From positions 225,553 to 257,552 of the forward strand of contig JBHLKY010000003.1 of assembly GCA_048886185.1 (NCBI GenBank): a DNA stretch of 32,000 nt, in the 5' to 3' direction. This DNA is from Candidatus Hermodarchaeota archaeon (GTDB lineage Archaea > Asgardarchaeota > Heimdallarchaeia > Hodarchaeales > Hodarchaeaceae). Under the pieces are notes generated by a model. That model searched no databases and had not been told where the DNA came from. It worked only from the letters and a program-made list of their open reading frames with translations. Positions 1,512 through 27,845 of the stretch are shown piece after piece. Position numbers and translations under genes: made by a program. How positions within the stretch are numbered: the stretch's first letter is position 1; each line of letters begins with the position of its first letter.

Positions 1512-1620
1512 AAAAACAGACAGATATTAGGCCGATTTGCTCATCTAAGAAGATTGACACTCCTGAAGCCAAATGACGATAGGTACGCAAAATTTCCAAA
1601 CGGTTAACCCTTGCACGATC
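1512..1620 (+). repeat. Intergenic repeat copy R1 (degenerate, full length)
   Basis: cagatattaggccga...actcctgaagcc...tgacgatagg...aatttccaaacggttaaccc. Confidence 0.85.
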
Positions 1621-1670
1621 AGTAGGGGACTAATTATACTTATAAGATTACCTCATAAACAATGAAAGGC

Positions 1671-2273
1671 TCATTTATTATAATTTTTTCCAATACTAAA
1701 GGCTTTAGCAATGGAGTTTCCTAAAATCCAATATTCCCCTGATCCAATTAATAAGGGGTTGACTTTTTTGATATCTGCGGAACATCTAGCTATATTGCTG
1801 CCAGTAAGATATTGCTCTCCAATATATGCCTCAACTATCTCAGCAAAGAAGATATCTCCCTCAGGAAATACATCAGATAAATGTTTAATAACTTGGCATT
1901 CAAAGTTTATTGGACATTCCATGATCATAGGTGCCGATCTGAGTGTCCCATAGAAAGACTGGAAAACTGTTGACTTATCTACATTGTGTCCCGAAACAGT
2001 ACCACAATAATCAGTTACTTGGACTAATTCCGCTGAAGGGATATTCACACTAAAAGACTTATTTCCTTTGATACCTTGAGTTGTATAGTGTTGTTTTGCA
2101 GTAGAAATATAGATGGTTGGGGGAGCAGATATCCGAAGCACCCCAAAATTACCAATCACATTATATGTAGGTTTATTGTTGACATTAGCGCCAATTAATA
2201 TAATTGGCATAGCAGGTAGTATTAACTGGGGACCACATTTGATTTTTTCACTACTCTCATTGGTAATATTCAC
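1671..2273 (-). CDS. Flavin reductase family protein (FMN-binding split barrel, flavoredoxin-like)
   Basis: PMPIILIGA, SFSVNIPS, DYCGTVSG, APMIMECPINFECQV, FFAEIV motifs; GTG start with GGAGG upstream. Confidence 0.9.
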   Translation of the reverse strand: MNITNESSEKIKCGPQLILPAMPIILIGANVNNKPTYNVIGNFGVLRISAPPTIYISTAKQHYTTQGIKGNKSFSVNIPSAELVQVTDYCGTVSGHNVDKSTVFQSFYGTLRSAPMIMECPINFECQVIKHLSDVFPEGDIFFAEIVEAYIGEQYLTGSNIARCSADIKKVNPLLIGSGEYWILGNSIAKAFSIGKNYNK

Positions 2274-2417
2274 AAGTCAACCTCCATAGATGCAAGACCA
2301 TATCATATCAGTTAATTCTGGGACATTGTACTTTTAAATTTTGAACATAACCAAGAAAAAATGGTTATTAGCCATCTCATTAACCATTCCCCGAAAACCC
2401 CAAAAACCTTCAAATAT

Positions 2418-2520
2418 GATACAGATTCACTCATACAAGACACTACTGGCTCCTTACGCCATCTGATAATAATTCCATTGAATTTCCACAATTTTTGAGA
2501 AAATTAGCCGTGTACGATTA
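2418..2520 (+). repeat. Intergenic repeat copy R2 (degenerate)
   Basis: tacaagacactactggctccttacgccatctgata...gaatttccacaatttttgagaaaattagccgtgtacgatta; the terminal tta is the stop codon of the 2518-3168 gene. Confidence 0.75.
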
Positions 2521-3168
2521 GTGGTCTTTAGATTTATTTCGTCGTTTTAGCAGCACAAAGGAAGTACAGAGAAGAAGAAGAAACTGCCATCTAAGTGAAG
2601 AACTAGTCGTAATCGTGGCTAATTCAGTCGTGGTTGAGGTAAAACGTGAGGAAGTAGGTAATGGCCAGGTGGGGAGACTGTGAAAAAGACCCTGGGAACT
2701 GAATGAAGTCCAGAAAATACCCATGTTTACAGTTGTGATCTTTACATAAAATAGTCCATCATCTATGAAATTAGTGTTCGACGATCCGTTTATAAGAAAA
2801 GCGTGAGAGTTACCAGACAAGAGTGTGATAGAGGGGGATAAATCAATAATTACACGAGTATAATTCCAAGTTTGGCCATAGGAAGTGATTACCTGAGTAA
2901 TTTCAAGCTTGGTTAATTCAGTTGGGATCTCACCGTTATAATGGAGACGAAAAACTACTTGTCGAAAGGAAGGGATATCACCAGGACTAATAGTACCAGT
3001 ATAATTGGGGGGAATGGGTACTCCAATATCACACATAAAATCTAAATGGCCAACAACCTCTCCCTGAAATACTGAATCCGTACCAGTAACAGAACCAATG
3101 AAAAGTAAAAAAGTACAACTGAAAAGGCATATTTGGAGGAAAAAGAGTGGACGGGCTTCCATTTTCAT
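2518..3168 (-). CDS. Secreted, C-terminally anchored hypothetical protein (paralog of 25070-25690)
   Basis: N-terminal signal peptide, T/S-rich linker, TM segment and KRRNK tail; GAGGAG upstream; N-terminus nearly identical to 25070-25690. Confidence 0.85.
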   Translation of the reverse strand: MKMEARPLFFLQICLFSCTFLLFIGSVTGTDSVFQGEVVGHLDFMCDIGVPIPPNYTGTISPGDIPSFRQVVFRLHYNGEIPTELTKLEITQVITSYGQTWNYTRVIIDLSPSITLLSGNSHAFLINGSSNTNFIDDGLFYVKITTVNMGIFWTSFSSQGLFHSLPTWPLPTSSRFTSTTTELATITTSSSLRWQFLLLLCTSFVLLKRRNKSKDH

Positions 3169-3254
3169 TCACTCCTCACTCTAGGGATAATATCGGGGAA
3201 GAATTATATAAAATTTGTTATTCCCGAAAGAATTCCATTTCCCAAAAATAAATC

Positions 3255-3367
3255 AAAAGCCTACAGAGATTAGACCGAACCTGCTCTAACAGAAGCTACT
3301 AACTCCTTACAACCATCTGAGACAAGAAACATCTCAATTTTCACCTAGTCGCCATTATACGATTAAT
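3255..3367 (+). repeat. Intergenic repeat copy R3
   Basis: aaaagcctacagagattagaccgaac...gctctaacagaagctactaactcct...ccatctga; right half degenerate, ends atacgattaat. Confidence 0.85.
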
Positions 3368-3488
3368 GGGATACAACTTTAAACAATTAAACTCAGTTAA
3401 CAAAAGATCCTAAACAGTTAGTACAAGCTGAATTTTAACATAATTTCCCCATGAAGCGAGGTTACAACTTTTCAAACTTAAAAGATTC

Positions 3489-4391
3489 TTGGAAAGGAAA
3501 ACCGCAATAATGAAACGTGTAATTATCAATATGGATCCTGGAATGGGAGTAAAGTATCGGGACATAGATGATGGTATAGCACTCCTTTATCTCATGACTT
3601 CACCTGATATTTCAATTGAAGGTATTACAATCAATTTTGGAAATACTCCTTCAGAACAGGGGTATCAGATAGCACGAACACTTCTAAAGATGACAAAAAG
3701 CACTATTCCTTTATTTAAGGGATCACAATCAAAGGCTGACTTGGGAAAACTCAATCCCTCAGTTGAATATTTAATAAAAACAGTGATTGAAAATCCAGGA
3801 GAGATTTCTTTATTAGCTACAGCACCCCTGACCAATATTGCAACAGCAATGATGTATGAAGAGGAATTTATGGACAATCTATCTGACCTAATTATTATGG
3901 GAGGGACATTAAAATTCAGACCATTTTCATTTTTTGGAGAATTTAATTTCCACTTAGACGCTAAAGCAGCAGCATTAGTATGTACAACCCCTATTCATAA
4001 GACATTAATTACTATGGATGTCTGTTCACAAACCGTTTTCCAACAACAGCATTTAAACAAGCTAAAACAAAAAACGACAATTGTTTCCAAATATCTAATG
4101 AAAATTATTCCTCATTGGTTGGAACTAAACAAAAAAATTTTTTGGAGGGCCAAAGGGTTTTTTCCATGGGATGTAGTAGCTGCGCTTTATTTAACAGATG
4201 ACCATTTATTTGATAGGAACCCATACACTTTGTCAATTCGTGAAACTGGTGTCCGCTCTGGTAGTATTCAAAATGTCATCCCCCGTGATAGTTTTAAGTC
4301 AATTAATGGACGGATACCCCTTAATATTCCTCTTCAGTTGAAATACAATTTGGCTATGGAAAAAATTATCTCCACATTATATGACTTTTAA
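3489..4391 (+). CDS. Inosine/uridine-preferring nucleoside hydrolase family protein
   Basis: N-terminal MDPG...DIDDGIAL Asp motif, APLTNIA, EFNFHLD, FPWD; probable ATG start at 3510. Confidence 0.92.
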   Translation: MERKTAIMKRVIINMDPGMGVKYRDIDDGIALLYLMTSPDISIEGITINFGNTPSEQGYQIARTLLKMTKSTIPLFKGSQSKADLGKLNPSVEYLIKTVIENPGEISLLATAPLTNIATAMMYEEEFMDNLSDLIIMGGTLKFRPFSFFGEFNFHLDAKAAALVCTTPIHKTLITMDVCSQTVFQQQHLNKLKQKTTIVSKYLMKIIPHWLELNKKIFWRAKGFFPWDVVAALYLTDDHLFDRNPYTLSIRETGVRSGSIQNVIPRDSFKSINGRIPLNIPLQLKYNLAMEKIISTLYDF

Positions 4392-4450
4392 CATACTAGA
4401 AGCTAAATTGATAAGAGATATTTTTTCCTTAATTTAGATTTCGAAGTTAA

Positions 4451-4538
4451 ACACAGACCGAATGCTCTCTACTTGAAGCAAACGACTCCTGAAGTTATCT
4501 GACGAAAGGCCCACTTAATTTCCGCACGACTAGCCCTT
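4451..4538 (+). repeat. Intergenic repeat copy R4
   Basis: cagaccgaatgctctctacttgaagcaaacgactcctgaagttatctgacgaaaggcccacttaatttccgcacgactagccc; overlaps the TAG stop of 4530-6161. Confidence 0.9.
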
Positions 4539-6161
4539 ACGCCTTCGGATTACATTCACTAATGTCACTACAAATAATGTGATGACACCCATTTCAAAAA
4601 TCTGGAGAAAAAATTGCAGCAATGAGGGAAATCCTGGGGAGATGAAGTGAGAACCGCTCGATGAGCTGCATGAGGAAATCATTGCCTTGGTTGTAGTATT
4701 GATAAAGCCATTATCAGGTGTGGGTTGGATTGAAGAATGAGGAGACAAAATATTAGACGTAGGGTCTCCATTCTCAAATATAAAGATAGCTCCAGAGGTG
4801 GTTGCATACCAAAAGCCTTGAGTACAACTAGCATTGACTCGGATGAGATACTGAGTTCCATTCCCCACAGTGGTACTATCCCAGATATATGACGTTGTGC
4901 TGAGGTTTGCAATTAAGATGATCCAGGAGATGCCCTTATCTGTGGAATAGGAAACCAAATAAGTGATTGGATGACTATTTAAATCAGTTGCAGGAGTCCA
5001 TTGGAGTGTGATGTTCCCTGAAAAAATTGGTCCACCGCTAGGACTAATGATTACAGCAGGTAGGAGATGATAGGGAGTAACTAAAGGCGAAAGATCTGAA
5101 TTAGTTTCTATTCCTGGAATGGGATAAGGTTGATCAACAATCCCATCCATATTAGCATCAGGAGTGATCCAGTCATCCCAAAAGTTATCTGAAAAATGAT
5201 TATTTGAACCCTGGTCTGCCGTTTGGGATCCCCCCCTATTATTTCCTAAGAACATATTGGCTTGAATCTTGTTGTTATTACTTCTATGTGTAAGCTCCAC
5301 CCCATAATCACTGTTGTTGGCAAAATAGTTGCCAGAGAGAATATTTCTCGAAGATTGAAGGTAAATACCACTTCCACTGTTGTTAATGATCATGTTTCCA
5401 GACAGGATACCATATCCAGAACCATCTAGGTAAATACCAAGCTCATTATTGTTACTAATGGTATTTCCCGTCAACAGACAATATATACCAACTAGATCAA
5501 TTCCCCAATAATTATTGGAAACAAAGTTGTTGGATAAAGAGATACCCCTAGATTGAAGAATTTGAATACCCATTTCAGTGTTATTAGCGATAATGTTACT
5601 TGATAAATGAGTATTAACACAGAAACGAAGGACAATTCCTCTTCCATTGATATTAGCGATAGTATTATTAGACATACCGATATTTTCAGAGTAGCTAATA
5701 AAAATTCCAAAGCCGTGATTAATGACTATATTCGACAAAATGTATCCATTTGTAACATTCTGAAAATAAATACCATAATATCCGCCATTTAAAACACAAT
5801 TGCGGATTTGAAAATAAACATCAGTATTACTAATTTCTATCAATCTCCTGGTTGGGTAGCCAGTAATATTAAGACCATCAATGATGAACGGAGCTGACGG
5901 GGTTCCCTCTCCAGTCCAGTTCTCTTCTTCTATAAGAGTTTTGAACTCTTCATTTCCATTAATTGAGAGAGGTGAATGGATTACATGTTGAATTAAGACT
6001 GGAGTAGATGGTTGGTTATTATTTTTCCCAATGTTGATTCTTGAAGACCATCCAGAGGACATCACATTAATTGGACAGAGAAAAGAAATGAAAAACAGAA
6101 TCACTGAGATTTTGGTAAAAAACATTTTACTATGAATGAGCTGTTTTAACTCTAGGTACAA
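4530..6161 (-). CDS. Surface protein with NosD/CASH right-handed beta-helix repeats, Ig/FN3-like domain and C-terminal anchor
   Basis: Repeated NNxIxNN-GIxL units, SINGNEEF...GEGTPSAPFII, NFWDDW, TLQWTPATD...YLVSYS, TM segment with RRRKG tail. Confidence 0.88.
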   Translation of the reverse strand: MYLELKQLIHSKMFFTKISVILFFISFLCPINVMSSGWSSRINIGKNNNQPSTPVLIQHVIHSPLSINGNEEFKTLIEEENWTGEGTPSAPFIIDGLNITGYPTRRLIEISNTDVYFQIRNCVLNGGYYGIYFQNVTNGYILSNIVINHGFGIFISYSENIGMSNNTIANINGRGIVLRFCVNTHLSSNIIANNTEMGIQILQSRGISLSNNFVSNNYWGIDLVGIYCLLTGNTISNNNELGIYLDGSGYGILSGNMIINNSGSGIYLQSSRNILSGNYFANNSDYGVELTHRSNNNKIQANMFLGNNRGGSQTADQGSNNHFSDNFWDDWITPDANMDGIVDQPYPIPGIETNSDLSPLVTPYHLLPAVIISPSGGPIFSGNITLQWTPATDLNSHPITYLVSYSTDKGISWIILIANLSTTSYIWDSTTVGNGTQYLIRVNASCTQGFWYATTSGAIFIFENGDPTSNILSPHSSIQPTPDNGFINTTTKAMISSCSSSSGSHFISPGFPSLLQFFLQIFEMGVITLFVVTLVNVIRRRKG

Positions 6162-6258
6162 ATTCTTCCCATCTCAATAATCAGGAATTAGCTTTTCTAC
6201 TATAAGAAGATTCTGAAAATGAAGAAATATGTTAGAAATTCTTTAGCTAAAATGGGTA

Positions 6259-7077
6259 TCAAATTTCTTTAGAAAAGGGTTTGTCCTTAAACAACTCTGA
6301 TCTAGCTTTTAATACTTTTAGAGTTAAATCGTAAAAAATTTGGCTAGTAATTTTTTTATCGCTTGGTTTAATCTCATAATACGAAAATCCCATCTCTTCT
6401 ACTAGTGACTGTTCATCTGTAATAATCTCTTCAAAAAGCTCTTCTTTAGTAGGATGTAGAGACCTGTCGTTTTGAATCTTGAGAAAAGTGGGTGTATAAA
6501 CCTCCTTCATGATAAATCCTACTATTGCAATAGGAATTGAAAGGTGAATACTTTTAATTTCTTTGTACCAATCGTTCACTGCATTGAAAGAATCTCTATT
6601 GCTCTTATCAAAAGTAATAACAGCTGCTGATCCATGATAATAACTTAGTTGGCATTTTCTAAAAAACTCTTGACTAGCTATATCCATGAGTATTAGCTTA
6701 ATATTGTTACCATCTACCTGAATCTGTTTGGTCATAATGTCCACTCCCTGAGTAGGTAAATGATTAGTAGTAAATTTCCCTTCAGCATAGCTCCGAACCC
6801 AGTTATTCTTCAACTCACTTGGATAACCTATTAGACAGATTTTCAACAATTCTTTAGGGGGATAACAAGCCTTACAGGCCAAATTTAAACACTTAATTTT
6901 CTCTCCCCTTCTGTTTCTAAAAAACTCTTTGAATCTAGCCCCACAAAACAAACATTCTTGCCGTCTAATCCACCCTCTTTGTGAAATTAAGGTGATACAG
7001 AACTCACACGTGTGTCTTTGACAGCGAGAACACTGAATAAGAAAAGTATCCCTTCCACAGATCTGGCATTGATTCAT
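6259..7077 (-). CDS. Cys-rich zinc-finger fused to a Rab-like small GTPase domain with degenerate G-motifs
   Basis: CxxC pairs at the N-terminus; LKICLIG, PTQGVD...KLILMDIASQEFF, YYHGSAAVITFD..NRDSF..VNDWYKEI resemble Rab/Ras; GKS/T and NKxD are absent. Confidence 0.8.
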   Translation of the reverse strand: MNQCQICGRDTFLIQCSRCQRHTCEFCITLISQRGWIRRQECLFCGARFKEFFRNRRGEKIKCLNLACKACYPPKELLKICLIGYPSELKNNWVRSYAEGKFTTNHLPTQGVDIMTKQIQVDGNNIKLILMDIASQEFFRKCQLSYYHGSAAVITFDKSNRDSFNAVNDWYKEIKSIHLSIPIAIVGFIMKEVYTPTFLKIQNDRSLHPTKEELFEEIITDEQSLVEEMGFSYYEIKPSDKKITSQIFYDLTLKVLKARSELFKDKPFSKEI

Positions 7078-7264
7078 ATTTTCCCTTCTTTTATATATCC
7101 AACAAAATTCCCTTTTCGTAATTTAAGGTGCCTATTGTAATAAAAGATTATCTCGAGAATCTCTCAGAGTTTCTAGAAGATATTTCCTCGATTTTGAACT
7201 GGAGATAAGAAATTTCTAATTTTTTGTCGGAATTCCAACATTATTCCCTAAAATACAATCTTAT

Positions 7265-7376
7265 CAGACAGAAACCAAATCATTTCTGCTTTAATTGAAA
7301 TAAACGACTTATAAAGCCACCAGACGATAGCTTTTCTCATAAATCTTAATTTCCACAATTTTTAAGAAAATTAGCA
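7265..7376 (+). repeat. Intergenic repeat copy R5 (left half degenerate)
   Basis: aaacgacttataaagccaccagacgatagctt...tcttaatttccacaatttttaagaaaattagc. Confidence 0.85.
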
Positions 7377-7601
7377 CTTGAACTCAATGAACATTATTGT
7401 TTAGAGACATTTCGAAAGCGTTTCAGTATAGAGATTAAGACTAACACAACTAAAAGAGGGATGAATAAGCCTTTTATACTTGATAGGTCCTATTATCATA
7501 AACAATTACATCAGTTAGCTGAAACGAGACCCATAGGGAGACAGGACAACCAGAATCTGTTATTACAGCAGAATTATTGATGCCAAACATATCGAAATAG
7601 T

Positions 7602-8243
7602 ATGGATGAAAACATTATGATAAGAACGGAAGGGTTTCTTCAATGGATTGAAGAGAGTTTTACAAGCCCACAGGAGTTTAGACTGACTTATTCAGGGGAA
7701 TTACCATATGGACGGAATTTCAATCTCCGTTTTAAGAGAACTAGTTCATTAATGAAAGGAAATCAATGGTACCTTTTCAAAGCATTACCCTCAGAACTAA
7801 CTGTTGAAACAGCTTATCAGCTTGCAGTGGAAAGAAATCAAGTAATAAAAGGAAAAAGCAAAATTCTCAAATTTTTAGTGGATTTTCTCGTGTTTATCTA
7901 TGTCTCTGAGAAATCCATACCTCAAAATGTCTTGGATTGCCTTGGAAATTTCTATTCGGTGAAAAAAAGGCATTTTCAGAATGTTCATGAAGTGAACTTC
8001 TTTCTAGATACTTCAACTGGATATTACACCAAACCCAAACGAACAGGGTATTTTGGGTGGATTCCGTTAAAGAGATTGATAGGAGAGGTTGAAAGGTTTA
8101 TTTTTGAACCTTACAACCAATGGATTCAGTCAAATCAAGGAAGTAAGGAACAAATCGCAAACTTTTGTCATAATTGTGGACAAAAAAACACTGACAAGTA
8201 TAAATACTGTGAGAAATGTGGAGCGAATCTCGTGTCCCAGTAA
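7602..8243 (+). CDS. Hypothetical protein with C-terminal double zinc ribbon
   Basis: FCHNCGQK...YCEKCGANL at the C-terminus. Confidence 0.8.
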   Translation: MDENIMIRTEGFLQWIEESFTSPQEFRLTYSGELPYGRNFNLRFKRTSSLMKGNQWYLFKALPSELTVETAYQLAVERNQVIKGKSKILKFLVDFLVFIYVSEKSIPQNVLDCLGNFYSVKKRHFQNVHEVNFFLDTSTGYYTKPKRTGYFGWIPLKRLIGEVERFIFEPYNQWIQSNQGSKEQIANFCHNCGQKNTDKYKYCEKCGANLVSQ

Positions 8244-8373
8244 CATAGAGAACATACCAAAACAAAACCAATTTTTCAGAAAATGAGTATTGGCGCGATT
8301 AGTGTTAAACATGTTGGTCGAAATTATTGTCCAAAATCTCAATTCTAAAGAAAAATCACGAGGTTAACAAAGG

Positions 8374-8398
8374 TTATATATCTATATATGTAGATATA
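8374..8398 (+). promoter_or_regulatory. TATA-like box overlapping an 8-bp inverted repeat (candidate vapBC autoregulatory operator)
   Basis: TTATATA at 8374-8380; TATATCTA-N6-TAGATATA at 8377-8398, just upstream of vapB. Confidence 0.45.
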
Positions 8399-8410
8399 GA
8401 CTGAAGAAGA

Positions 8411-8653
8411 ATGGTATCTAAAACAATCTCAGTAACCGAAGAGGTATATATGCTCCTCAAACGAATGAAATTACCTCACGAAAGCTTTGGAGAGACGATC
8501 GAAAGATTATGCAAGAATTTTACAACAGAAAACTTGCTAAAATGGTATGAAAACACAGATGGGTGGAAAGACATGACTAACGAGGAGTTCCATGAAATCG
8601 ATGAGGTAATAACAGATTTCGGAAAGAATTTTAAGCCCCAGAAAGCGGATTAA
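8411..8653 (+). CDS. vapB: Archaeal VapB-family antitoxin
   Basis: KTISVTEEVYMLLKRMKLPHESFGETIERL signature; directly upstream of a PIN gene. Confidence 0.88.
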   Translation: MVSKTISVTEEVYMLLKRMKLPHESFGETIERLCKNFTTENLLKWYENTDGWKDMTNEEFHEIDEVITDFGKNFKPQKAD

Positions 8654-8655
8654 CA

Positions 8656-9069
8656 ATGATCTTGGTTGATAGTACATTTTTAATTGATGCATTACGAAAA
8701 AAGCCCAATGTGCGAAAATTCCTACAAAAAAATCCAACAGAGATATTATTTACGACAGAAATAAATGTTTTTGAGTTATATCTAGGATTACATTCAAGTA
8801 AGATCCTAGAAAAAGAGGTAGCTCTTTTCGCAAAACGAAAACAACCTCTGGAAGAATTGATCACGAAATTCCAAGTACTCTCATTTAGAAGAGGGGAAGC
8901 AATAGAATCAGCAAAAATTCTAGGAAAACTGTATAGATCGGGGAAACCAATTGAGTTTCGTGATGGGCTAATTGCAGGGATAGCTATTGCAAATGGTATA
9001 AAGAAAGTACTGACAAGGAATACTGACCATTTTAGACGAATTAAAGAGATTGAAGTACTATCCTATTGA
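8656..9069 (+). CDS. vapC: PIN-domain VapC toxin
   Basis: ILVDSTFLID, EINVFEL, DGLIAGIA, TRNTDHF motifs. Confidence 0.93.
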   Translation: MILVDSTFLIDALRKKPNVRKFLQKNPTEILFTTEINVFELYLGLHSSKILEKEVALFAKRKQPLEELITKFQVLSFRRGEAIESAKILGKLYRSGKPIEFRDGLIAGIAIANGIKKVLTRNTDHFRRIKEIEVLSY

Positions 9070-9084
9070 AGACAAAAACACACT

Positions 9085-9186: not shown

Positions 9187-9206
9187 GGAGCAGCTAAAAA
9201 AGGATA

Positions 9207-10495: not shown

Positions 10496-10497
10496 AA

Positions 10498-19685: not shown

Positions 19686-19686
19686 A

Positions 19687-21185: not shown

Positions 21186-22579
21186 GATGTACTGAACTCC
21201 CTCACAGGTTCTATTAGTTTCTTGAACAAAATTAAGAAACCAGTTAGACCAAGTATTTGAATTAGGATAATCAATAATTTTGATATGAGTAGTATAGGGG
21301 TTGTTATTTCGAATAATACATTCATGAACAAGATAGAGTCACCAATTATCAACAAAAGAAAGACCGTGGGTTCAATTACAATGAGGATTACTAAAAGAAA
21401 AGTAAGTTTCTTTTGATTCTTGAGTCGAGTAAAGTTTATCAAGAGAATTACGATACAAATCACCATAGTGGGCAAAATGGGCACAAAATGGATGTAAGAG
21501 GGGATGAATGAGCCATCTGGAGGAAGGAAAAACTCAAGTTGACGTTGTGTGGAGGCATCAAAGATCCAAGGTGAGGAAAAAATTATGATGAAAAAGTATA
21601 GTGTTATCAGACTTAACCAGAATCTCTTATCTTCCAAGATCTGGAGTTTTCTTGGAAAAAAGATTGGCTCTGTAGATAAAGAAGAGGACCACTTCCACCC
21701 CACTAGAGGGGATATGAGATACAAGAATATTATCAGAATAATGCTAATCATAAGCCAAAAGAAAGCTCTATCCAAATGTAAATAATAGGTATTTTGAGGA
21801 TAGAGAAATTCATTAAACAGAATAGTTTTGAGATACCCCCAAAATATCTCAGGAAGAGTACCAGCAAAATAAAACCATTCCTCTTTCTCCCAGTGTCCTG
21901 TTTGAGGATTAAATTGATAATACTCTTCTGGAAGAGCGAGAATTGCATTAATGAAATAATGCGTTTGATCTAAGAAGGATAAAAACGCAGAATAAAGTAA
22001 AATAAAGGAAATCATCCCAGATATTAGATAAGAAAAGGATTTATGGTAAATTCTACAAAAGAAAATAAAATGAACAAAAAATCCGACAAGAAAGAAGAAA
22101 AACACAAGAGAAAATGGATTTGTAAAGGATTCAAAAAATAAAAATGTGTTATCTTGTCCCAAAGTTCGGAAAAGCTGATATAATCCACCGAGGACGAACA
22201 GTACCCCTATGTAATGATAAAATACGCTTGGTGGCCTTTTAACAAACTGTAGAAAACGCTCACGGAGAGGTAGGGCACCCACTTCTTTGCGGCCTATCAC
22301 GGGCAATAAATCGTCTATAACCTCATCATTCTCAATAGATACTAAAAATGAATGAGATATGTGTCCCTCTGACGATAAAATATAATTTCCATCCCCATTT
22401 TTGGTGATAAGCGGGCCTAACGTATCTAAATGAAATGAAAGCCTGCTTGTCGATTCTAATGAGAGATATTTCAATAAATCCGAGAAAGATCTAGGAGCAG
22501 CATAGAGTAATCTGATAATGGTAATTCTAAGAGGGTGAGACACATAGCTTAGAAATTTCGCTGTACTAATAGATTTCAT
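21182..22579 (-). CDS. ArsR-like winged HTH fused to a multi-pass membrane domain (tandem paralog)
   Basis: SHPLRITIIRLL...SFSDLLKYL...SRLSFHLDTL.PLITK..DGNYILS; GAGGTG upstream; 4-bp overlap with the next gene. Confidence 0.85.
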   Translation of the reverse strand: MKSISTAKFLSYVSHPLRITIIRLLYAAPRSFSDLLKYLSLESTSRLSFHLDTLGPLITKNGDGNYILSSEGHISHSFLVSIENDEVIDDLLPVIGRKEVGALPLRERFLQFVKRPPSVFYHYIGVLFVLGGLYQLFRTLGQDNTFLFFESFTNPFSLVFFFFLVGFFVHFIFFCRIYHKSFSYLISGMISFILLYSAFLSFLDQTHYFINAILALPEEYYQFNPQTGHWEKEEWFYFAGTLPEIFWGYLKTILFNEFLYPQNTYYLHLDRAFFWLMISIILIIFLYLISPLVGWKWSSSLSTEPIFFPRKLQILEDKRFWLSLITLYFFIIIFSSPWIFDASTQRQLEFFLPPDGSFIPSYIHFVPILPTMVICIVILLINFTRLKNQKKLTFLLVILIVIEPTVFLLLIIGDSILFMNVLFEITTPILLISKLLIILIQILGLTGFLILFKKLIEPVREFSTS

Positions 22580-23046
22580 AAGACCACACCTCTTTTAAGC
22601 ACCCATTGCCTTAAAATCATTTTGACAAATTTCTTAGGTCAGGAAAAATAGATAACACAAAGAACAGAAAGTATTAACCTTTTGTAATACAGTTATTGAA
22701 TCCCTTCCTCGGCGCACTAACTCTTGAGGTCAAATATTATGACTTCAAAGGGGAGAAAGCTGCAAAAGAAACCCCTGCATTAAATTTGGTGTCATCCTTG
22801 CTAACTTTGATTACTCTCTTTATATTACATCAGAGACGATCAAATTTCAAAACAAAATGAGTATAACAACATTCGCAAAAACATTCAATGAATTGCTAGA
22901 GAAAAGGATGATGTAACTTTCTGTCTAGTTTTGAATCTGTTATCTGCCGATGAACGAGTTTAATTGAATCAGAGAGGCGATTGTACGCTTTTTTCTCTCT
23001 AAGCCATCGAATAATACTATTGCTTACTTCTAATAGATCAAATCCT

Positions 23047-24228
23047 TTATTTGGTACGGCGTTTCTTCACGAGGGGAACAAGAGTAAATATGAAAGTAAT
23101 CATAATTACGCTAAAACCGAATCCTGACCCAGATGAAACATCTGACCCATTACTGAACATGAGCCAGGTGGTGGCGTTTGCAGAATAACCAAGGGTGTCA
23201 ACAATTTCAAAGGTCCATGTGGAGTTTCCTGAAGTGGGAGTCAAGAAAAAACTCCATTCAGTTCGGAAAGTATCATTGGTCTCATAGAGAGAACCATTCT
23301 GATAAAGGTTGTAATGGTCAAAGTGATTATCGATTCCCTCAAAAATAATTTCCACAGGGTCACTGGAATCAACAATTTGACCCGGAGGAGCAGAAACGGT
23401 TGGATAACCGTCATCAATCAAGCCAGCTAAATTAGTAATTCTACGAGAGTAATCATAGTAGAGATTATCCTCAATACTGTATTGAATATTTCCCTTCACA
23501 TAGAGACCACTCGTTTTTTCATATTCAAAACGACTAGTAAATTCCGTGTACCCTTCAGGGATAGTATTACGCTCAAGAACCCAGGTTTCATAACCTTGGA
23601 GCACATTCTCGCCACTAACGGTGAAATTTTCATCGACAATTTGACCAATTTCCCAATCCGTCACATTGACATCGAAAACATTGGTGAGACTCCCAACCGC
23701 CCCAAAACTAGAGGCAAAGTCCCACGTGTAACTATATACTTCAGAACTATCATAGAACGCGAGCAGGATGACATGCGTTGCCCCATACGGATTTTGGGCC
23801 AGGACCCGCTCGCCTGTGTATTTGTTAACATTTCGAGTGAGGCGAAACGAAAAAGTTGAAGCATTTTCATCAGCCAGTTCGTAAAAGTCGTCATCCAGAA
23901 ATTTAACGCCATAATGAGTAGGAAAGTAGGTGACAGAAGCCCGCTTTTGGTAGGCATCATTGATAGACAAAGTGTAATCTTTCTCAAATTTCACAATAGA
24001 ACTGGAAAGAGAAGTCACCAAAACTTCTTCAGTAATACTGTAATCAATGACCCATTCAATGCCAAAGGGGTCACTAACCGCCTCATTAAGAAAAAATGTA
24101 TTTTCTTCCAATACTATAGTGCCATCAGGGATGAGAAATAACTCTGAATTGGCACCAACTGACAAAGGATGGAAATTTTGAACAGAAAACATAATACACA
24201 AGCATAATACGATTTTTATTACCCTCAC
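23047..24228 (-). CDS. Secreted hypothetical protein with C-terminal Ig-like domain and anchor
   Basis: Signal peptide, YNLYQNG...WTFEIVDTLG Ig-like segment, SGSGFGF-TM-KKRR. Confidence 0.85.
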   Translation of the reverse strand: MRVIKIVLCLCIMFSVQNFHPLSVGANSELFLIPDGTIVLEENTFFLNEAVSDPFGIEWVIDYSITEEVLVTSLSSSIVKFEKDYTLSINDAYQKRASVTYFPTHYGVKFLDDDFYELADENASTFSFRLTRNVNKYTGERVLAQNPYGATHVILLAFYDSSEVYSYTWDFASSFGAVGSLTNVFDVNVTDWEIGQIVDENFTVSGENVLQGYETWVLERNTIPEGYTEFTSRFEYEKTSGLYVKGNIQYSIEDNLYYDYSRRITNLAGLIDDGYPTVSAPPGQIVDSSDPVEIIFEGIDNHFDHYNLYQNGSLYETNDTFRTEWSFFLTPTSGNSTWTFEIVDTLGYSANATTWLMFSNGSDVSSGSGFGFSVIMITFIFTLVPLVKKRRTK

Positions 24229-24290
24229 ACATCATACCTCTAGTTAATAGTGAATGGAATATCTAAATATCAAAGCAATCATCATAAAAA
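24170..24290. repeat. Segment duplicated at ~31860-31962 (gene start and upstream region of 23047-24228)
   Basis: acataatacacaagca.aatacgatttttattaccctcacac...gtgaatggaatatctaaa.tatca.agcaatcatcataaaaa present at both sites. Confidence 0.9.
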
Positions 24291-24393
24291 GCTTTGGATC
24301 GGGTTTCTTAGGAGTTGAAAACGAGAAGATGCAGGATTACACATTAGTCTTTCCTCCTTAAATAGAGAACAATAGCCATGGCTTATAACCAAT

Positions 24394-24843
24394 TTATTCC
24401 CACCATTCCTTCACAACCTTCAAATGAAATGAAATCGATGGGGTAGGTGCAAGTGGGTTAAATTCATCCGCTCTAAACTCGAATCGATAAGTACCATTAT
24501 GGGAAACCGAATATTCCTTGTAGCCGTTGTCTTCCACTAATACTCCCACTGAAACTGCACTTGTAGCTACTTGAGTAAAATACATTCGCATTTTACAATC
24601 TGTGACATCGTTAAAATTCGTAATAGTAGCGGTAACTTTATCATTCGTGTTAAAAAACCACCAATCAGTCCAATACGCATTAATCAAACCATTTCCAGCA
24701 ACCTCCATATCCCCATCAAATAAATCTTTTTGACGAAGTTTTGGTTCTGATTCTGGTGAGGTACACCCACTCAAAAATACAATAAGGCAAAATACCAGCG
24801 GTATAGAAATTTTAGTCAAGAAATTTTTTATATTTCTACTCAA
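24394..24843 (-). CDS. Putative lipoprotein
   Basis: Basic N-terminus, hydrophobic stretch and LSGC lipobox-like motif; TTG start with GAGGTG upstream. Confidence 0.7.
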   Translation of the reverse strand: MSRNIKNFLTKISIPLVFCLIVFLSGCTSPESEPKLRQKDLFDGDMEVAGNGLINAYWTDWWFFNTNDKVTATITNFNDVTDCKMRMYFTQVATSAVSVGVLVEDNGYKEYSVSHNGTYRFEFRADEFNPLAPTPSISFHLKVVKEWWE

Positions 24844-25000
24844 AATTTACTCACCTCTTAGAGAATATCTTCAAATCTAGAATTCTCATCAATCCTCGAT
24901 TGATGTGAAACTTTAACTTACTAACCTTTTTAAATCTAATGAATTAAATCATCATATTCATCAAAGTAGTTCTAAAGAGATTGTAGTTTTCCTGAACTTT

Positions 25001-25072
25001 AACAGTGAGCGAATCTGCTTTATGAGAAGCTAACGACTCCTGAAGCTACTTGATGATAGTTCCGCTTAATTA
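25001..25072 (+). repeat. Intergenic repeat copy R9 (truncated on the right by a gene stop)
   Basis: tatgagaagctaacgactcctgaagctacttgatgatagttccgcttaattaa. Confidence 0.88.
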
Positions 25073-25690
25073 ATTCAACTTATTTCTAGTCCGTTGTCTT
25101 GAAAGTAAAATGAAAACACAGAAGAGAGGAAAAAAATACAACCATCTAGGAAAGGAGTTAGTAGCATTAATAGAGGGAGAAGTGGTTAATGGCCAGTCTG
25201 GGAGACTCTTGGAAATACCCTCTGAGCTGAAGGAAGGCCAATAAATGCCCAGATTAGCCGTCGTGATCTTGACATGAAACAGCCCACCCTCAATGAAATA
25301 AGGGGAGCCAGTAACTTGGAAGGTAGCAGAACCACCAGACACGAGTGTAAGGGGGGAAAAGAAATCAACACTCCCATGAGAATAATTCCAAGTTTGGCTG
25401 AAAGCCGTGATTTCCTGAGTAACATCAAGATGAGTAATTTCAACGGGTATCTCCCCACTAAAACCGAGGCGAAAAATCACAGTGTCATAGCCAGCGACAT
25501 CATAGTGCTGATAGCTAATAGTGTAATTAGTGTAATTGGGAGGTGACACTCCTGCAATCCCGAAATCACCAAGATGGCCAAGAACCTCTCCCTGAAATAC
25601 TGAATCCGAACCAGTAACAGAACCAATGAAAAGAAATAAAGTATAACTGAAAAGGCATATTTGAAAGAATAAGATTGGACGGGCCTCCAT
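25070..25690 (-). CDS. Secreted, C-terminally anchored hypothetical protein (paralog of 2518-3168)
   Basis: MEARP.F F.QICLFS.T..LFIGSVTG.DSVFQGEV.GHL shared with the paralog; TM segment and basic tail. Confidence 0.85.
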   Translation of the reverse strand: MEARPILFFQICLFSYTLFLFIGSVTGSDSVFQGEVLGHLGDFGIAGVSPPNYTNYTISYQHYDVAGYDTVIFRLGFSGEIPVEITHLDVTQEITAFSQTWNYSHGSVDFFSPLTLVSGGSATFQVTGSPYFIEGGLFHVKITTANLGIYWPSFSSEGISKSLPDWPLTTSPSINATNSFPRWLYFFPLFCVFILLSRQRTRNKLN

Positions 25691-25783
25691 TTTCGTTCAC
25701 TCCTCACTCTAGGGAGAATATCTGGAAAGAATGATATAAAATTTGTTATTCTTGAAAGAATTCCATTCCCCGAAAAATAATAC

Positions 25784-25905
25784 AAAAGCGTACAGAGATT
25801 AAACCGGGAGCGCTCTATGAGAAGTTAACGACTCCTAAAGCCATCTGACGATAGGTTCGCTGAATTTCCACAATTTTTTAAAAAAATTAGCCCTGGTGCG
25901 ATTAA
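25784..25905 (+). repeat. Intergenic repeat copy R10 (most complete)
   Basis: aaaagcgtacagagattaaaccgggagcgctctatgagaagttaacgactcctaaagccatctgacgataggttcgctgaatttccacaattttttaaaaaaattagccctggtgcgatta. Confidence 0.95.
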
Positions 25906-25928
25906 TGCCAATCACCATTTTCCCTAGA

Positions 25929-26474
25929 TTAAATTTTAATATTTTTGCGAAGTAATCCCAATACTTGGAGGGAAAGTAAATATTCTCTAATTTGCTCTTC
26001 TTTATTTTCTTTCAGAATCGCTCTTCCAAGCTGGATAAATATCGTCAGCGAGTCAAGGATTACAGATGCCTTCACAATTTTATTATTTTTAAAATGAAAA
26101 AGAAATGCCATGTCATACTTAACCCGATTTCCTGTAGGTGGAATCCCAATAAAGTACCCCTTATGGGTTCCTTCAAATGGGCCATAAAGCCAAACTTTAT
26201 CCTTTTCAGCCACAATCTCTTGTATTGAATATTTTAAATCAGGAAAAGCAATCAAACCTTCTTGAAATAGTGATTTGACTGCTTTTATCCCCCTTCTCTC
26301 TGGTTCTTCACGATAGGGGAGATTTTTCCATACGACATTAGGATCAAAGCAATTATCAAATAACGCTAAATTATTACTATTATAAGCTTCTACCACCATT
26401 CTCGCGATTCGTTTATTTTCTTCCTTAGACATCTTAAGAAAACTCCAAAACGTGAATTGATCAAATCTAGACAT
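25929..26474 (-). CDS. SnoaL-like ester cyclase (NTF2-like fold)
   Basis: EENKRIARMVVEAYN, AFPDLKYSIQEIVAEKDKV, GTHKGYFIGIPPTGNRV, FKNNKIV. Confidence 0.92.
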   Translation of the reverse strand: MSRFDQFTFWSFLKMSKEENKRIARMVVEAYNSNNLALFDNCFDPNVVWKNLPYREEPERRGIKAVKSLFQEGLIAFPDLKYSIQEIVAEKDKVWLYGPFEGTHKGYFIGIPPTGNRVKYDMAFLFHFKNNKIVKASVILDSLTIFIQLGRAILKENKEEQIREYLLSLQVLGLLRKNIKI

Positions 26475-26545
26475 TAACTCCTAAAAAGATTTTGGGGAAA
26501 AGGGGAAGGATAGATCAATTTACAAAAATACTCCGAAAACAGACC

Positions 26546-26642
26546 AAAAGCGTACAGAGATTAGACCGAAAGCGCTCTACAAGAAGCTCCTGACTCCTGA
26601 AGCCACCAGCCGATAGCTTTACTAAAAAATTTTAATTTCCAT
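26546..26642 (+). repeat. Intergenic repeat copy R11
   Basis: aaaagcgtacagagattagaccgaaagcgctctacaagaagctcctgactcctgaagccaccagccgatag...tttaatttcca. Confidence 0.95.
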
Positions 26643-26717
26643 ACCATCAAAGGATGAAGATAACGAAATCATAACACTTATAATACTCGGTGTAAAAGTA
26701 CTACCAGGTATAATGCA

Positions 26718-26996
26718 ATGTCAACAGTGAAATTTACAGAGACAGAGAAATTAAAACAACTTCAAGCCCGGATATACCTCTTAACCAATCAACAGGTAAC
26801 TCAACAGGAAATATTAGAGTACGCGGTAAATATCCTTACTGATAATATAGATCTGCTGGTTGAAAGGTTACAAGCAGGATCAAAAATTTTCACACCCGAA
26901 GAAATCAAAAAAATTCGAGCAAAGGCATCTCATTGGGGAGAGGATACCAAAGAGCTCTCAAGTACAATTGATGAAACACTTTATGGAAAGTCATGA
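26718..26996 (+). CDS. Putative antitoxin
   Basis: Small protein ending STIDETLYG, a typical VapB-like C-terminus; ATGA overlap with the PIN gene. Confidence 0.75.
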   Translation: MSTVKFTETEKLKQLQARIYLLTNQQVTQQEILEYAVNILTDNIDLLVERLQAGSKIFTPEEIKKIRAKASHWGEDTKELSSTIDETLYGKS

Positions 26997-27415
26997 AGAT
27001 GGCCATTTTAATAGATACGGGTTTTTTCGTCGCTCTCGCTAATAAAGATGACAATAATCATGACCGAACCAATAAGCTGCTAGAGGATTTGGTGACAGGA
27101 AAATGGGGAGCACGAATCACAACCGATTATATCTTGGATGAAGCAATCACCGTGACATGGGCTCGAACAAAGAATAAAGCACTAGTGAAAGAGGTATACG
27201 ACCTCTTTCTGGGATCAGAAGCAATTTGTATAGTACAACCGATTCCTCACGAAATACTCGGGGAAATATGGGCGATATTTCAACAATATTGTACACCAAA
27301 AAGACCACTGAGCTTTACCGACTGTTCACTCCTAACCTACGCAAAGAAAAAGGGGATCGATTATCTCTTGAGCTTTGATAAGGAATTTGATGGACTAGTC
27401 AGTAGGATTCATTGA
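26993..27415 (+). CDS. vapC: PIN-domain VapC toxin
   Basis: ILIDTGFF, TDYILDEA, LSFTDCSL, LSFDKEF. Confidence 0.93.
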   Translation: MKMAILIDTGFFVALANKDDNNHDRTNKLLEDLVTGKWGARITTDYILDEAITVTWARTKNKALVKEVYDLFLGSEAICIVQPIPHEILGEIWAIFQQYCTPKRPLSFTDCSLLTYAKKKGIDYLLSFDKEFDGLVSRIH

Positions 27416-27462
27416 ACTAATCAAAGAATTACTCACTCATTTCTCAATCCTCAAAAATCGCA

Positions 27463-27550
27463 AAAAGCGTACAGAGTTGAGACCGACACCGCTCTCAGAG
27501 AAGCTCCTGACTCCTGAAGCTCAGTGTGATTAATGATAGAAAGCTTTAAT
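27463..27550 (+). repeat. Intergenic repeat copy R12a (same type as R8a)
   Basis: aaaaagcgtacagagttgagaccgacaccgctctcagagaagctcctgactcctgaagctcag...gatagaaagctttaat. Confidence 0.92.
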
Positions 27551-27805
27551 ATAAATCACTTGAATATTTCAGATCACTGAGAAGAATGGAACAATGAAAG
27601 TTCAATTTTACCGATATATGGCGTTTTACATCGATCCTGACTGTTTCTGCATACATAAAGGTTGAAATAATTTTTACTAGGATGGAACTCCTTTCTATGT
27701 TTACGAAAACAAATGTTTATCAAATTAAAACCGAATGTGGCTTTTCGAGCATGTTTCCTGATCAATTGGTTACATTAGAGGGGTTATGAAACTCCTAGAG
27801 CCACC
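27510..27805 (+). pseudogene. Internally deleted second copy of the 18630-19701 RHH-vapC module
   Basis: 27521-27720 matches 18641-18840 (about 10 substitutions) and 27721-27805 is identical to 19617-19701 (vapC 3' end); 18841-19616 is missing. Confidence 0.95.
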
Positions 27806-27845
27806 AAACGATAGGTTTCCCAAAAAATCTTAATTTCCACAAATT
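27791..27845 (+). repeat. Intergenic repeat copy R12b (right half)
   Basis: actcctagagccaccaaacgatagg...tcttaatttccacaaatttt. Confidence 0.88.

Follow-up and report, generated by a model that had tools for sequence, protein, structure and literature searches.

An array of gene modules joined at probable copies of the 23S rRNA gene end and trailer in a Hodarchaeales archaeon

Described systems and comparison with the locus

Tandem accretion at the 3' ends of stable-RNA and housekeeping genes is known from islands that target tRNA and tmRNA genes and from the 'accretion-mobilisation' arrays of streptococcal ICE and CIME. The Xer-dependent pdif modules of Acinetobacter plasmids are bordered by 28-bp dyads in alternating orientation. 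Eukaryotic rDNA harbors the R1 and R2 retrotransposons in the 28S gene and, in yeast, a recombination hot spot at the 3' end of the rDNA unit. In archaea the 3' trailer of the pre-rRNA takes part in the 23S processing stem, in which a bulge-helix-bulge-type motif is cut by the splicing endonuclease. Sedentary chromosomal integrons and CALINs also occur in archaea (Ghaly et al. 2022, PMC9668308), and integrons and CALINs are reported to be enriched in the Asgard group (PMC9668308). No published description of orphan 23S tail arrays was found in the literature.

The locus analysed here, a window of 32,000 nt (the whole stretch of DNA under study) from a genome designated G000, resembles tandem accretion in that its direct repeats are copies of a target gene 3' end (aligned to the 23S rRNA genes of the congeners G008 and G005), that the arrays of G008 and G005 start at the intact gene, that the repeats are co-oriented and that, as in some members of that class, an integrase is lacking. 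It differs in that the target is the 23S gene with its trailer, that the modules carry 1-3 genes each and number dozens, that the repeats measure 140-165 nt or include up to 326 nt of the gene, and that no recombinase-family match occurred among the array genes scanned here. With sedentary integrons and CALINs it shares a long chromosomal array of small unrelated modules, rich in toxin-antitoxin genes, separated by one repeat family and varying in content among relatives, but it has no attC hairpin, IntI or attI, its genes run both ways with upstream regions of their own, and its repeat derives from an rRNA trailer. The initial annotation, which had placed the array in a probable Asgard archaeon and called it integron-like or novel while doubting that it was an ordinary integron, was correct as to host, array form and that doubt; membership among integrons or CALINs was not sustained. 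An integron was rejected as attC hairpins, IntI/attI and co-oriented promoterless cassettes were all absent from the stretches scanned, and a CALIN (at least 2 attC within 4 kb, no integrase) was rejected as the sites are not attC-like. As in pdif arrays, there is no dedicated integrase, and the modules between the recombination sites are small, of either orientation and in many cases toxin-antitoxin pairs; the 28-bp dyad of pdif was not seen here, and the tails are all co-oriented. As in eukaryotic rDNA, the end of a large-subunit rRNA gene appears as the preferred place of landing or recombination; the eukaryotic cases, however, are in-gene retrotransposons or changes in rDNA copy number, while here foreign genes appear to stack behind a single operon and, as far as seen, there is no reverse transcriptase.

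The repeat and the gene modules of the window

Scanning of the window, with filters off, using a sequence-only covariance model constructed from the repeat copies (model R1) gave 14 matches with E values from 5e-30 to 8e-6, all on the plus strand; all other matches had E values of at least 0.37. These are exactly the 14 same-strand copies located by the initial annotation, and four of them proved to be halves of two split copies (18573 with 19686, and 27455 with 27790), the second pair duplicating the first. The 12-mer core ACTCCTGAAGCC, allowing up to 2 mismatches, was observed 15 times against 1.6 expected, and 0 of 100 shuffles reached 15. Every copy is intergenic or overlaps just the final codons of a minus-strand ORF, in keeping with the earlier placement between genes. 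The repeat unit, previously given as 100-120 bp, measured about 140-165 nt, and the palindromic core ascribed to it was not recovered: DNA folds of four copies on both strands were no better than shuffles (z -1.1 to +0.9), and RNAalifold on 12, 17 and 14 copies returned 0 pairs on either strand. Folding revealed no terminal inverted repeats or self-complementarity in the repeat, and neither folding nor inspection by eye revealed an Xer/dif-type dyad (28-bp site, inverted 11-bp arms, 6-8 bp spacer).

The copies are called tails here, from the relationship described in the next section. Tails and modules are as follows, with R1 scores in bits.

1503..1637, minus strand: tail 1, in minus-strand order 23S end, trailer, T-rich end (80 bits, E 1e-24)
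1671..2273, minus strand: flavin-reductase-like protein (Pfam PF01613)
2394..2537, minus strand: tail 2, degenerate and of the long form, its 23S end bearing an inserted A/T palindrome (63 bits, alignments)
2518..3168, minus strand: 216-aa protein, family unassigned, paralogue at 25070-25690
3245..3380, minus strand: tail 3 (72 bits)
3489..4391, plus strand: inosine-uridine nucleoside hydrolase (Pfam PF01156)
4439..4556, minus strand: tail 4 (73 bits)
4530..7077, minus strand: NosD/beta-helix protein and Ras-family small GTPase
7251..7400, minus strand: tail 5, AT-rich, with both insertions (60 bits)
7602..9069, plus strand: zinc-ribbon protein, VapB antitoxin and VapC (PIN) toxin
9080..9208, minus strand: tail 6 (86 bits)
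9767..10246, minus strand: 159-aa protein
10416..10525, minus strand: tail 7, 23S-proximal end diverged (74 bits, model positions 3-114)
10537..18545, no single strand: tail-free 8-kb stretch with a clostripain-family peptidase, a broken N6/N4 DNA methylase, DUF3160, an HNH nuclease and small ORFs
18573..18671, minus strand: trailer-distal half of a split tail, following the consensus until GACTCCTGAAG and divergent beyond
18775..19685, plus strand: two-gene module within the split tail, a 124-aa protein and a PIN-domain protein (Pfam PIN/PIN_3)
19686..19751, minus strand: 23S-proximal half of the split tail, following the consensus back from ACTCCTAGAGCC (27 bits, model positions 59-115)
19935..24843, minus strand: tail-free 5-kb stretch with two DUF7347 winged-helix paralogues and two proteins of unassigned family
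24994..25109, minus strand: tail 10 (60 bits)
25774..25915, minus strand: tail 11, the top copy of the window (98 bits, E 5e-30)
25929..26474, minus strand: SnoaL-like protein
26536..26672, minus strand: tail 12 (R1 match)
26718..27415, plus strand: 92-aa protein and PIN toxin (VapBC-like)
27455..27848, minus strand: second split tail, made up of 27455-27552 (distal half), what is left of the insert, and 27790-27848 (proximal half); identity to 18570-19737 is 90-92%, 767 nt being absent

ORF and Pfam contents agreed with the earlier description of a repeat-delimited array of unrelated 1-3-gene modules rich in toxin-antitoxin genes. Genes occur on both strands, and most modules have 46-200 nt of upstream DNA of their own (12 nt at 10537). 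Minus-strand genes end 0-40 nt short of a tail or overlap it, and plus-strand genes end 1-47 nt from the far end of a tail. In the split tails, ACTCCTGAAG and ACTCCTAGAG flank the 18775..19685 module, bordering both sides of the toxin-antitoxin insert.

In the whole genome, nhmmer detected 20 copies, all at 220-253 kb of contig C3 or on contig C46 and on one strand in each array, and the covariance model gave 27 matches; copies are confined to C3 (218-253 kb) and C46 (11.7 kb). Copies were present in 19 of the 21 other genomes of the genus and in none of 40 genomes outside it. The scan of genome and relatives that the initial annotation had proposed gave, in G000, two one-strand arrays and not copies scattered in random orientation, and the order and content of the modules were species-variable, not conserved. 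Modules are common with G008, G010, G017 and G003 at 70-92% identity, with different order and neighbours. Two genes of the 10537..18545 stretch are also in the G008 array, one of them tail-flanked there; the gene of the 159-aa protein was found in four further genomes whose flanks are not common; the 26718..27415 module is 83% identical to a module of G010, in which the trailer-distal half of tail 12 and this adjoining VapBC-like module stay together. Tail 6 with both flanks is present at about 97% identity in a relative from an unrelated estuary run, X6. Beyond the main arrays, G010 has tail pairs at two more places, and solitary tails occur within long contigs of G008, G011 and G015.

As reported earlier, the ORFs of the window include no recombinase. 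IntI or another tyrosine recombinase was likewise absent among the ORFs of C46 and of the 20 kb upstream. The suggested recombinase at the array ends did not materialise in or beside the arrays as far as they are assembled; on the right, the array continues past the contig end. No recombinase family was recognised among about 65 array ORFs scanned in G000, G010 and G005. Matches to PF00589 in G000 lie only on C4, C27 and C70, and the integrase of C70 type was found in just 8 of 22 genomes, away from arrays, while one conserved tyrosine recombinase, taken to be XerA-like, was found in all six genomes searched. With integrases missing in and next to the arrays, exchange could be due to a recombinase supplied in trans (e.g. 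the XerA-like one) or to general homologous recombination guided by the tails.

Relation of the repeat to the 23S rRNA gene

Judged from sequence alignment, the repeat in its minus-strand reading consists of the final ~26-30 nt of the gene for 23S rRNA and, behind them, ~115-135 nt of 3' trailer; this trailer includes the 3' strand of the stem that serves in pre-23S processing, and its end is T-rich and terminator-like. Contig C8 of G008 ends in the 3' part of a true 23S gene (328 bits to Rfam LSU_rRNA_archaea, model positions 2545-2987, truncated where the contig stops); the final repeat copy is the trailer of this gene, and at least 25 co-oriented copies lie ahead of it over 47 kb. The window copies, tail 1 (1503..1637) among them, can be aligned to the G008 23S end and trailer. 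In G005 a true 23S gene (1220 bits) is followed by its own tail, a 3.6-kb insert of three genes, none a recognisable recombinase, and a second tail about 93% identical to the first from CATCACTAATCG to TATTTTCGAA. The array thus begins at an intact 23S gene in both G008 and G005, the sole two genomes with the 23S 3' part and its flank assembled. The G000 assembly contains no 16S or 23S gene, a point against the explanation given below, and we therefore infer the contact between array and operon in G000 from these congeners. Orphan copies across the genus have two recurrent start points, about 326 nt and about 26-30 nt upstream of the 23S end. The repeat is homologous to the archaeal pre-rRNA trailer, and the 23S leader of G008 is complementary to, and pairs with, the segment GCGGACCTATCGTCAG.TGGCTTAAGG of the trailer, whereas the orphan copies have no leader partner nearby and therefore cannot form the processing stem in cis.

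Origin of the array and rival explanations

Observed, and the basis for an explanation, are the nature of the repeat, the clustered and co-oriented arrangement of its copies, the contact between array and 23S gene in two congeners, the insertion flanked by direct repeats and the species-variable content. We favor serial Campbell-type insertion combined with tail-to-tail exchange behind the rRNA operon, with a probability of about 0.6. A circular DNA carrying a tail would recombine with the resident tail behind the 23S gene, the inserted genes would end up between two tails in direct orientation, and repeated insertion would give stacked modules; later tail-to-tail exchanges would delete, duplicate and reshuffle modules, and unused tails would decay. 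We infer the circular intermediates and the direction of these events. The window is best explained as a section of a gene island, at least 45 kb in size and variable, whose modules are joined at orphan tails.

That the repeat is a site of recombination is plausible in view of the copies that are split or halved, of a hybrid tail seen in a different sample and of the G005 insert. To that extent the earlier proposal of a site-specific recombination site is plausible; the repeat itself is a copy of the 23S tail and not a dedicated site. Half tails in G010 and G000 break at most ~12 nt from the core. One contig of run X6 carries a tail-1-like core and a tail-2-like end joined straight to gene 2518-3168 (at 2516), and this joint lacks the flavin-reductase module (1671..2273). 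No circular or excised form was seen among the assembled contigs of public runs, in which most 'joints' were paralogue artefacts. Further points count against serial insertion behind the operon: no tail occurs in the final 4 kb of the window, which should face the 23S gene; no recombinase is linked to the arrays; G010 and G017 show arrays or small tail pairs with the rRNA gene absent from the stretches read; and, at the divergence available, shared modules mostly occur without matching flanking tails, a pattern that does not delimit the mobile unit. Tail quality rises only weakly in the direction of the 23S gene (G008: rho 0.32, p 0.10; G000: rho 0.31, p 0.20), and strict 'newest next to gene' stacking is therefore unsupported.

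A dedicated integron-like system, in which orphan tails would be maintained attachment sites and a site-specific recombinase encoded elsewhere would cut at or near the core to move single cassettes, is possible and distinctly less probable. The clustering of split- and half-tail breakpoints at the core would suit it, but this clustering is weakly significant (about 0.03, an estimate) after correction for half-tail detectability, no dyad symmetry was seen in the core, and segment similarity between neighbouring tails is uniformly low with no extra drop at the core. Conserved blocks (80-99% against 40-60% in the spacers, 79 tails of four species) also point to maintained sites; these blocks coincide, however, with functional parts of the true trailer (processing stem, 23S end), and their conservation may therefore reflect the source and not selection on orphans. 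The sharp outer limits of tails, recurrent across species, and the tyrosine recombinase conserved in the six genomes searched are consistent with such a system, while many orphans are clearly decaying: those farthest out in the array score 16-26 bits, and the orthologue of tail 12 in G010 has suffered deletions. We regard as tentative, well short of even odds, the wider proposal of a Hodarchaeales cassette-capture platform, in which the 3' trailer of the rRNA operon would dock like attI, orphan copies would be active exchange sites and a recombinase encoded elsewhere (XerA-like or of another family) would move 1-3-gene cassettes between cells and species. If correct, it would be an independently arisen integron analogue in the closest archaeal relatives of eukaryotes and an echo of the recombination hot spot at the eukaryotic rDNA 3' end.

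The T-runs in which the tails end on the rRNA-sense strand, and the spacing of gene ends (minus-strand genes 0-40 nt before a tail or overlapping it, plus-strand genes 1-47 nt from its far end), would agree with tails kept as cis-elements, either one-directional terminators or insulators or RNA-processing signals, that shield the island from rRNA read-through and were spread by ordinary duplication. This explanation leaves the G005 insert with its direct repeats, the split tails and the retained 23S pieces (26-326 nt) unaccounted for and is unlikely on its own; a cis-acting role may be compatible with serial insertion as a secondary benefit. Less probable still is a selfish dispersed element of rRNA-trailer origin (MITE, REP or SINE-like) that inserts between genes. 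Some tails do lie outside the main arrays (the G010 pairs and the single copies of G008, G011 and G015), but all those found in G000 sit in two arrays on one strand, terminal inverted repeats and hairpins are absent, and the DNA between copies differs between species, while insertion into conserved gene order would have kept that order. Hardly any credence can be given to a true integron or CALIN with attC sites recombined by IntI: the arrayed small unrelated modules with many toxin-antitoxin pairs and the reported enrichment of both in Asgard archaea (PMC9668308) are outweighed by the absence of an attC-type fold on both strands, genes in both orientations with their own upstream regions, array contigs without a tyrosine recombinase and the homology of the repeat to the 23S end and trailer.

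If serial insertion and tail-to-tail exchange behind the rRNA operon are the correct explanation, the end of this operon would be one of the chief places at which a single Hodarchaeales genus takes up and shuffles accessory genes, resulting in species-differing islands of 35-50 kb. It would represent a testable route of horizontal gene flow, without an element-borne integrase, in the lineage nearest eukaryotes, and would account for the breaks of metagenome assemblies at rRNA operons and islands in the group. For annotation, 'integron-like' arrays of Asgard archaea may consist of displaced gene tails and not of attC sites. Among the accessory genes concerned would be toxin-antitoxin pairs and genes for small GTPases and for beta-helix proteins of the surface; both the NosD/beta-helix and the Ras-family GTPase families were met again in the arrays of each of the four species compared.

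23S rRNA origin and distribution of the repeat

The repeat family of the window was recovered by repeat finding, and alignment at the fourteen places given in the initial annotation yielded a single unit. A sequence-only covariance model (R1) was built from 17 full copies and run on the window with the filters off, which revealed 14 matches with E values of 5e-30 to 8e-6, all on the plus strand and at the positions claimed, the next best match having E >= 0.37. The unit is about 140-165 nt long and not 100-120 bp as first proposed, and two split copies account, by their halves, for four of the 14 places, the second copy being a 90-92% duplicate of the first minus 767 nt. The 12-mer core, ACTCCTGAAGCC, occurs 15 times in the window against 1.6 occurrences expected. 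Searches of the window with Rfam (E <= 1) and ARAGORN detected no known RNA and no tRNA.

Analysis of the congener genome G008 indicated where the repeat comes from. The 3' part of a minus-strand 23S rRNA gene, truncated by the contig end, closes contig C8 of this genome (Rfam LSU_rRNA_archaea, 328 bits, model 2545-2987), and contig C9 starts with the 5' half of 23S and with 16S in the same orientation. The last R1 copy of G008 (C8:53840-53965) is the own end and trailer of this true 23S gene; the 23S model stops at ...CTAATCGCACAAGGGCTAACCGTG and the trailer continues to a T-rich stretch. The window copies were alignable along their whole length to this true 23S end and trailer. Judged by eye, the trailer part GCGGACCTATCGTCAG.TGGCTTAAGG has its complement in the G008 23S leader (CCTTAAGC..GACG..ATAGGACCGC) and is therefore read as the 3' strand of the stem at which pre-23S is processed, in which the core named by the initial annotation would be one strand of the outer helix. 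No leader-like partner of the core was found on the other strand. In a second congener, G005, a tail likewise comes after a long true 23S (1220 bits, model 1568-2987) and belongs to it. The repeat is thus almost certainly an orphan copy of the 23S end plus trailer, and is called a tail below. Since both 16S and 23S are absent altogether from the assembly of the genome studied here (G000) and from those of G010, G015 and G017, contact between array and rRNA operon is visible in only two genomes, G008 and G005, and is present in both.

The true 23S of G008:C8 contains a 320-nt intervening sequence (L029:8309-8628) in the peptidyl-transferase region, between ...GGGAACGTGA and GCTGGGTTTAGACC, the ends of which are complementary (GACTTAGC / GCTAAGTC); the 23S of G005 is devoid of it.

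Other identities of the repeat were considered. Read on the minus strand it gives a peptide, ..LIAQGLTVWKFSGPIVRWLQESGASRRALSV*, and a coding remnant was rejected because the frame is broken by insertions not divisible by three and because the rRNA origin accounts for the sequence. A C/D-box sRNA (CUGA..UGACGA, judged by eye) was dismissed, as boxes and spacings vary between copies. Where putative small hairpins were looked for between the conserved blocks, the copies mainly showed a short form GTCCG versus a long A/T palindrome (ATTTTnGGAAAAAT), which is an insertion polymorphism.

A profile search of the 75 contigs (4.84 Mb) of G000 located copies only at 220-253 kb of contig C3 and on the 11.7-kb contig C46, on a single strand per contig. 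A better model added four weak copies, with which the C3 array reaches to about 7.5 kb ahead of the window, which itself extends to the end of C3. The R1 model matched 19 of the 21 other genomes of the genus and none of 40 that belong to other genera within the order and class. In the relatives the tails were again clustered and co-oriented, with at least 25 copies over 47 kb in G008:C8 and 12 copies over 27 kb in G017:C126. The scan of the genome and of its relatives suggested by the initial annotation showed copies that are clustered, co-oriented and, among the genomes searched, confined to the genus. The pattern that the initial annotation had named as counting against its reading, copies scattered in random orientation, was not found, and a MITE/REP-type repeat was rejected on this ground. 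A pattern scan of metagenomes retrieved only six short contigs, with one to three tails each and without rRNA.

Modules between the tails

The following modules lie between the tails of the window:

flavin-reductase-like gene
nucleoside hydrolase
SnoaL-like protein
9767-10246, minus strand, 159-aa protein
216-aa gene of no known family, with a paralogue in a later module
NosD/beta-helix protein and Ras-family GTPase
zinc-ribbon protein, VapB and VapC
two further PIN modules

Two longer stretches of 8 and 5 kb are free of tails. On C46 and in the 8 kb before the window the types of gene are the same, with NosD, Ras, DinB, TPR, zinc ribbon and a nucleotidyltransferase/HEPN pair. Genes of the window lie on both strands, as the initial annotation had noted in setting the array apart from classical integrons. 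Minus-strand genes end within 40 nt of the 23S-side end of a tail or overlap the tail, with the exception of 9767-10246, whose stop is ~560 nt from tail 6 (at 9080); plus-strand genes end 1-47 nt from the far end of a tail. Most modules have 46-200 nt of upstream DNA of their own (12 nt at 10537).

When 191 array ORFs of four species were clustered, only four families proved to be present in at least three species: Ras GTPases, NosD-type proteins, a zinc-ribbon protein and a small Cys-rich protein. A small protein rich in Cys, of about 90-130 aa with eight invariant Cys and no Pfam match, is encoded in G000 at C3:220467-220745 (L002:14915-15196), 5 kb before the window. Its family occurs in 1-8 copies per genome in 20 of 22 genomes of the genus, and at least eight of the 11 best-scoring members are in or near 23S-tail arrays (G000, G008 twice, G010, G012 twice, G014 and G017).

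Comparison with the arrays of G008 and G010 gave these counterparts:

window 9756-10387: G008 6852-7482 (92%)
window 17509-18103: G008 17683-18277
window 13761-14202: G008 25318-25774, there a single gene between two tails
window 26666-27423: a G010 module, along with the trailer-distal half of tail 12 (at 26536)

Modules are common to several species, in other orders and beside other neighbours, which is taken as a further sign of recombination at tails. In G003, tails flank an MFS gene that in G000 is situated immediately beyond the array. Synteny of the flanks was looked for between the G000 array and G010 and none was detected, and the divergence between G003 and G008 is too great for clean cassette indels. 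The 159-aa gene is present in four other Hodarchaeota/Heimdallarchaeota MAGs (L058-L061) at 71-97% protein identity, with no common flanks, the homology stopping a few tens of bases from the gene in every pair; it is also found in genomes without any tail within 3 kb.

Several other genes of the window were recorded. At 14354-15127 an N6/N4 DNA methyltransferase is split into two ORFs (149 and 77 aa), and an HNH nuclease gene follows 2.4 kb on; this may be what is left of a restriction-modification module. Adjacent paralogues at 19935-22579 (416 and 465 aa) have an N-terminal DUF7347 winged-helix domain in common, and one of them gave a faint Csa3-like match (PADLOC, E 7e-4); PADLOC gave no usable result for ten unassigned proteins. 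Just past the last tail, 28030-30237 encodes a 735-aa protein in which a WD40 beta-propeller is fused to a serine beta-lactamase/transpeptidase-like domain. The contig end (31860-32000) is a 90-93% copy of two regions within 24188-24929, inside the array, without the gene (149 aa) that separates these two regions there; the assembly therefore probably broke because of a repeated module.

Signs of recombination and search for a recombinase

In G005 a tail follows the true 23S, and after 3.6 kb with three genes comes another. Between CATCACTAATCG and TATTTTCGAA this pair of tails shows about 93% identity, and outside these limits no relationship, the sequence picture classically expected of a Campbell-type insertion. 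The insert codes for one Schlafen/AlbA_2-domain protein and two proteins of no known family; none of the three is recognisable as a recombinase. A 403-aa protein of the insert has the appearance of a membrane protein, and the ESM Atlas gave no informative result for it. One tail of the window is interrupted by a two-gene PIN module: the tail consensus stops at GACTCCTGAAG and resumes at ACTCCTAGAGCC on the other side. Six further half tails of G010 and G000 are broken at most about 12 nt from the core, which is only suggestive of recombination because half tails are detectable solely if broken near the middle. Across the genus two start points of orphans recur, about 326 nt (at TATCTATTGGACG) and about 26-30 nt (at (G)CCACTAATCG) before the 23S end; orphan tails of the window are of the short class only.

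Public sequencing runs were examined as Logan contigs, and stretches without cover in runs X5 and X6 were not counted as evidence. A contig of X6, an unrelated estuary run, joins a core like that of tail 1 (at 1503) and 26 nt resembling the end of tail 2 (at 2394) to the gene 2518-3168 (95% identical), the flavin-reductase module between them being missing. As a single contig of depth 5, it is a weak sign of recombination at tails. Most joints (10495>2840, 7370>19724, 18838>19615, 20000>10461, 10490>9132) are paralogous tails or a later part of the window on earlier copies, and not the circular cassettes whose detection had been suggested.

Matches to PF00589 in G000 were restricted to contigs C4, C27 and the start of C70 (truncated) and none fell within the arrays, in agreement with the earlier remark that the window holds no recombinase. 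The C4 tyrosine recombinase (C4:43052-43534; E about 1e-45), which we take to be XerA-like, was present in all six genomes searched. The C70-type recombinase is sporadic (8 of 22 genomes of the genus); in G010 it is at 737 kb, apart from every array, distances in this genome being soft since it is a single record without rRNA genes and probably a joined MAG. The C70 gene itself (C70:2-784, L003) is cut by the start of its 3.6-kb contig, and nothing was found to connect it with the arrays.

Tail decay and models of array assembly

Conservation among 79 tails from four species is concentrated in seven blocks (80-99%) separated by spacers (40-60%). The blocks correspond to positions of the 23S end and processing stem, and the true tail of G005 deviates at precisely the positions at which co-evolution of its own stem would be expected; inheritance from working trailers can therefore explain the pattern without selection on the orphans. 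Many orphans are degenerate: those farthest out in the G000 array score only 16-26 bits, and tail 12 has suffered deletions in its G010 counterpart. Nearest-neighbour tails were 63-93% identical and, in 35 of 63 cases, shared a genome. Identity to the true tail did not fall steadily with distance in G008, and tail quality showed a weak, non-significant trend with distance from the 23S side. We conclude that the arrays are old and reshuffled and that some tails are scars.

As a whole account we favour, with a probability of roughly 0.6, serial insertion of circular DNA bearing a tail behind the rRNA operon, in which each insertion would duplicate the tail, followed by tail-to-tail exchange and tail decay. 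The enzyme might be a recombinase acting in trans, or exchange might proceed by homologous recombination guided by the 140-165 nt of homology. A dedicated integron-like system with working sites (a subset reading) is possible, if doubtful: half-tail breaks near the core speak for it, and against it speaks the similarity compared segment by segment between tails, which was equally low throughout, with no hot spot at the core. A purely regulatory element in cis, with tails placed close to gene ends, is unlikely, and a selfish repeat dispersed over the genome is very unlikely, the copies being clustered and on one strand.

Least probable of all is a true integron. The array has the look of a sedentary integron, a likeness that the initial annotation had pointed to, but it fails the defining tests of both integron and CALIN. 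Published archaeal integrons retain IntI, ORFs in one orientation and the canonical attC fold (PMC9668308), and none of these holds for this array. The palindromic core initially described was not borne out: in single-stranded DNA folding, both strands of four copies were no more stable than shuffles (z -1.1 to +0.9), and RNAalifold on 12, 17 and 14 copies, on both strands, gave no consensus pair. In how it works, the array is most like tandem accretion at the 3' ends of stable-RNA genes in which some members have no integrase. The novelty lies in the target (23S end and trailer), in the small size and the number of the modules, and in the lack of an integrase among the array ORFs scanned; a full-text literature search for rRNA-tail arrays found no paper describing them.

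Two insertion polymorphisms were also observed in the tails of G000, G008 and G010, namely an A/T palindrome (AATTTTTnnnAAAAATT) precisely at the 23S end and a palindrome (AGATTTTnGGAAAATCT) replacing the strand that pairs with the leader in the true trailer.
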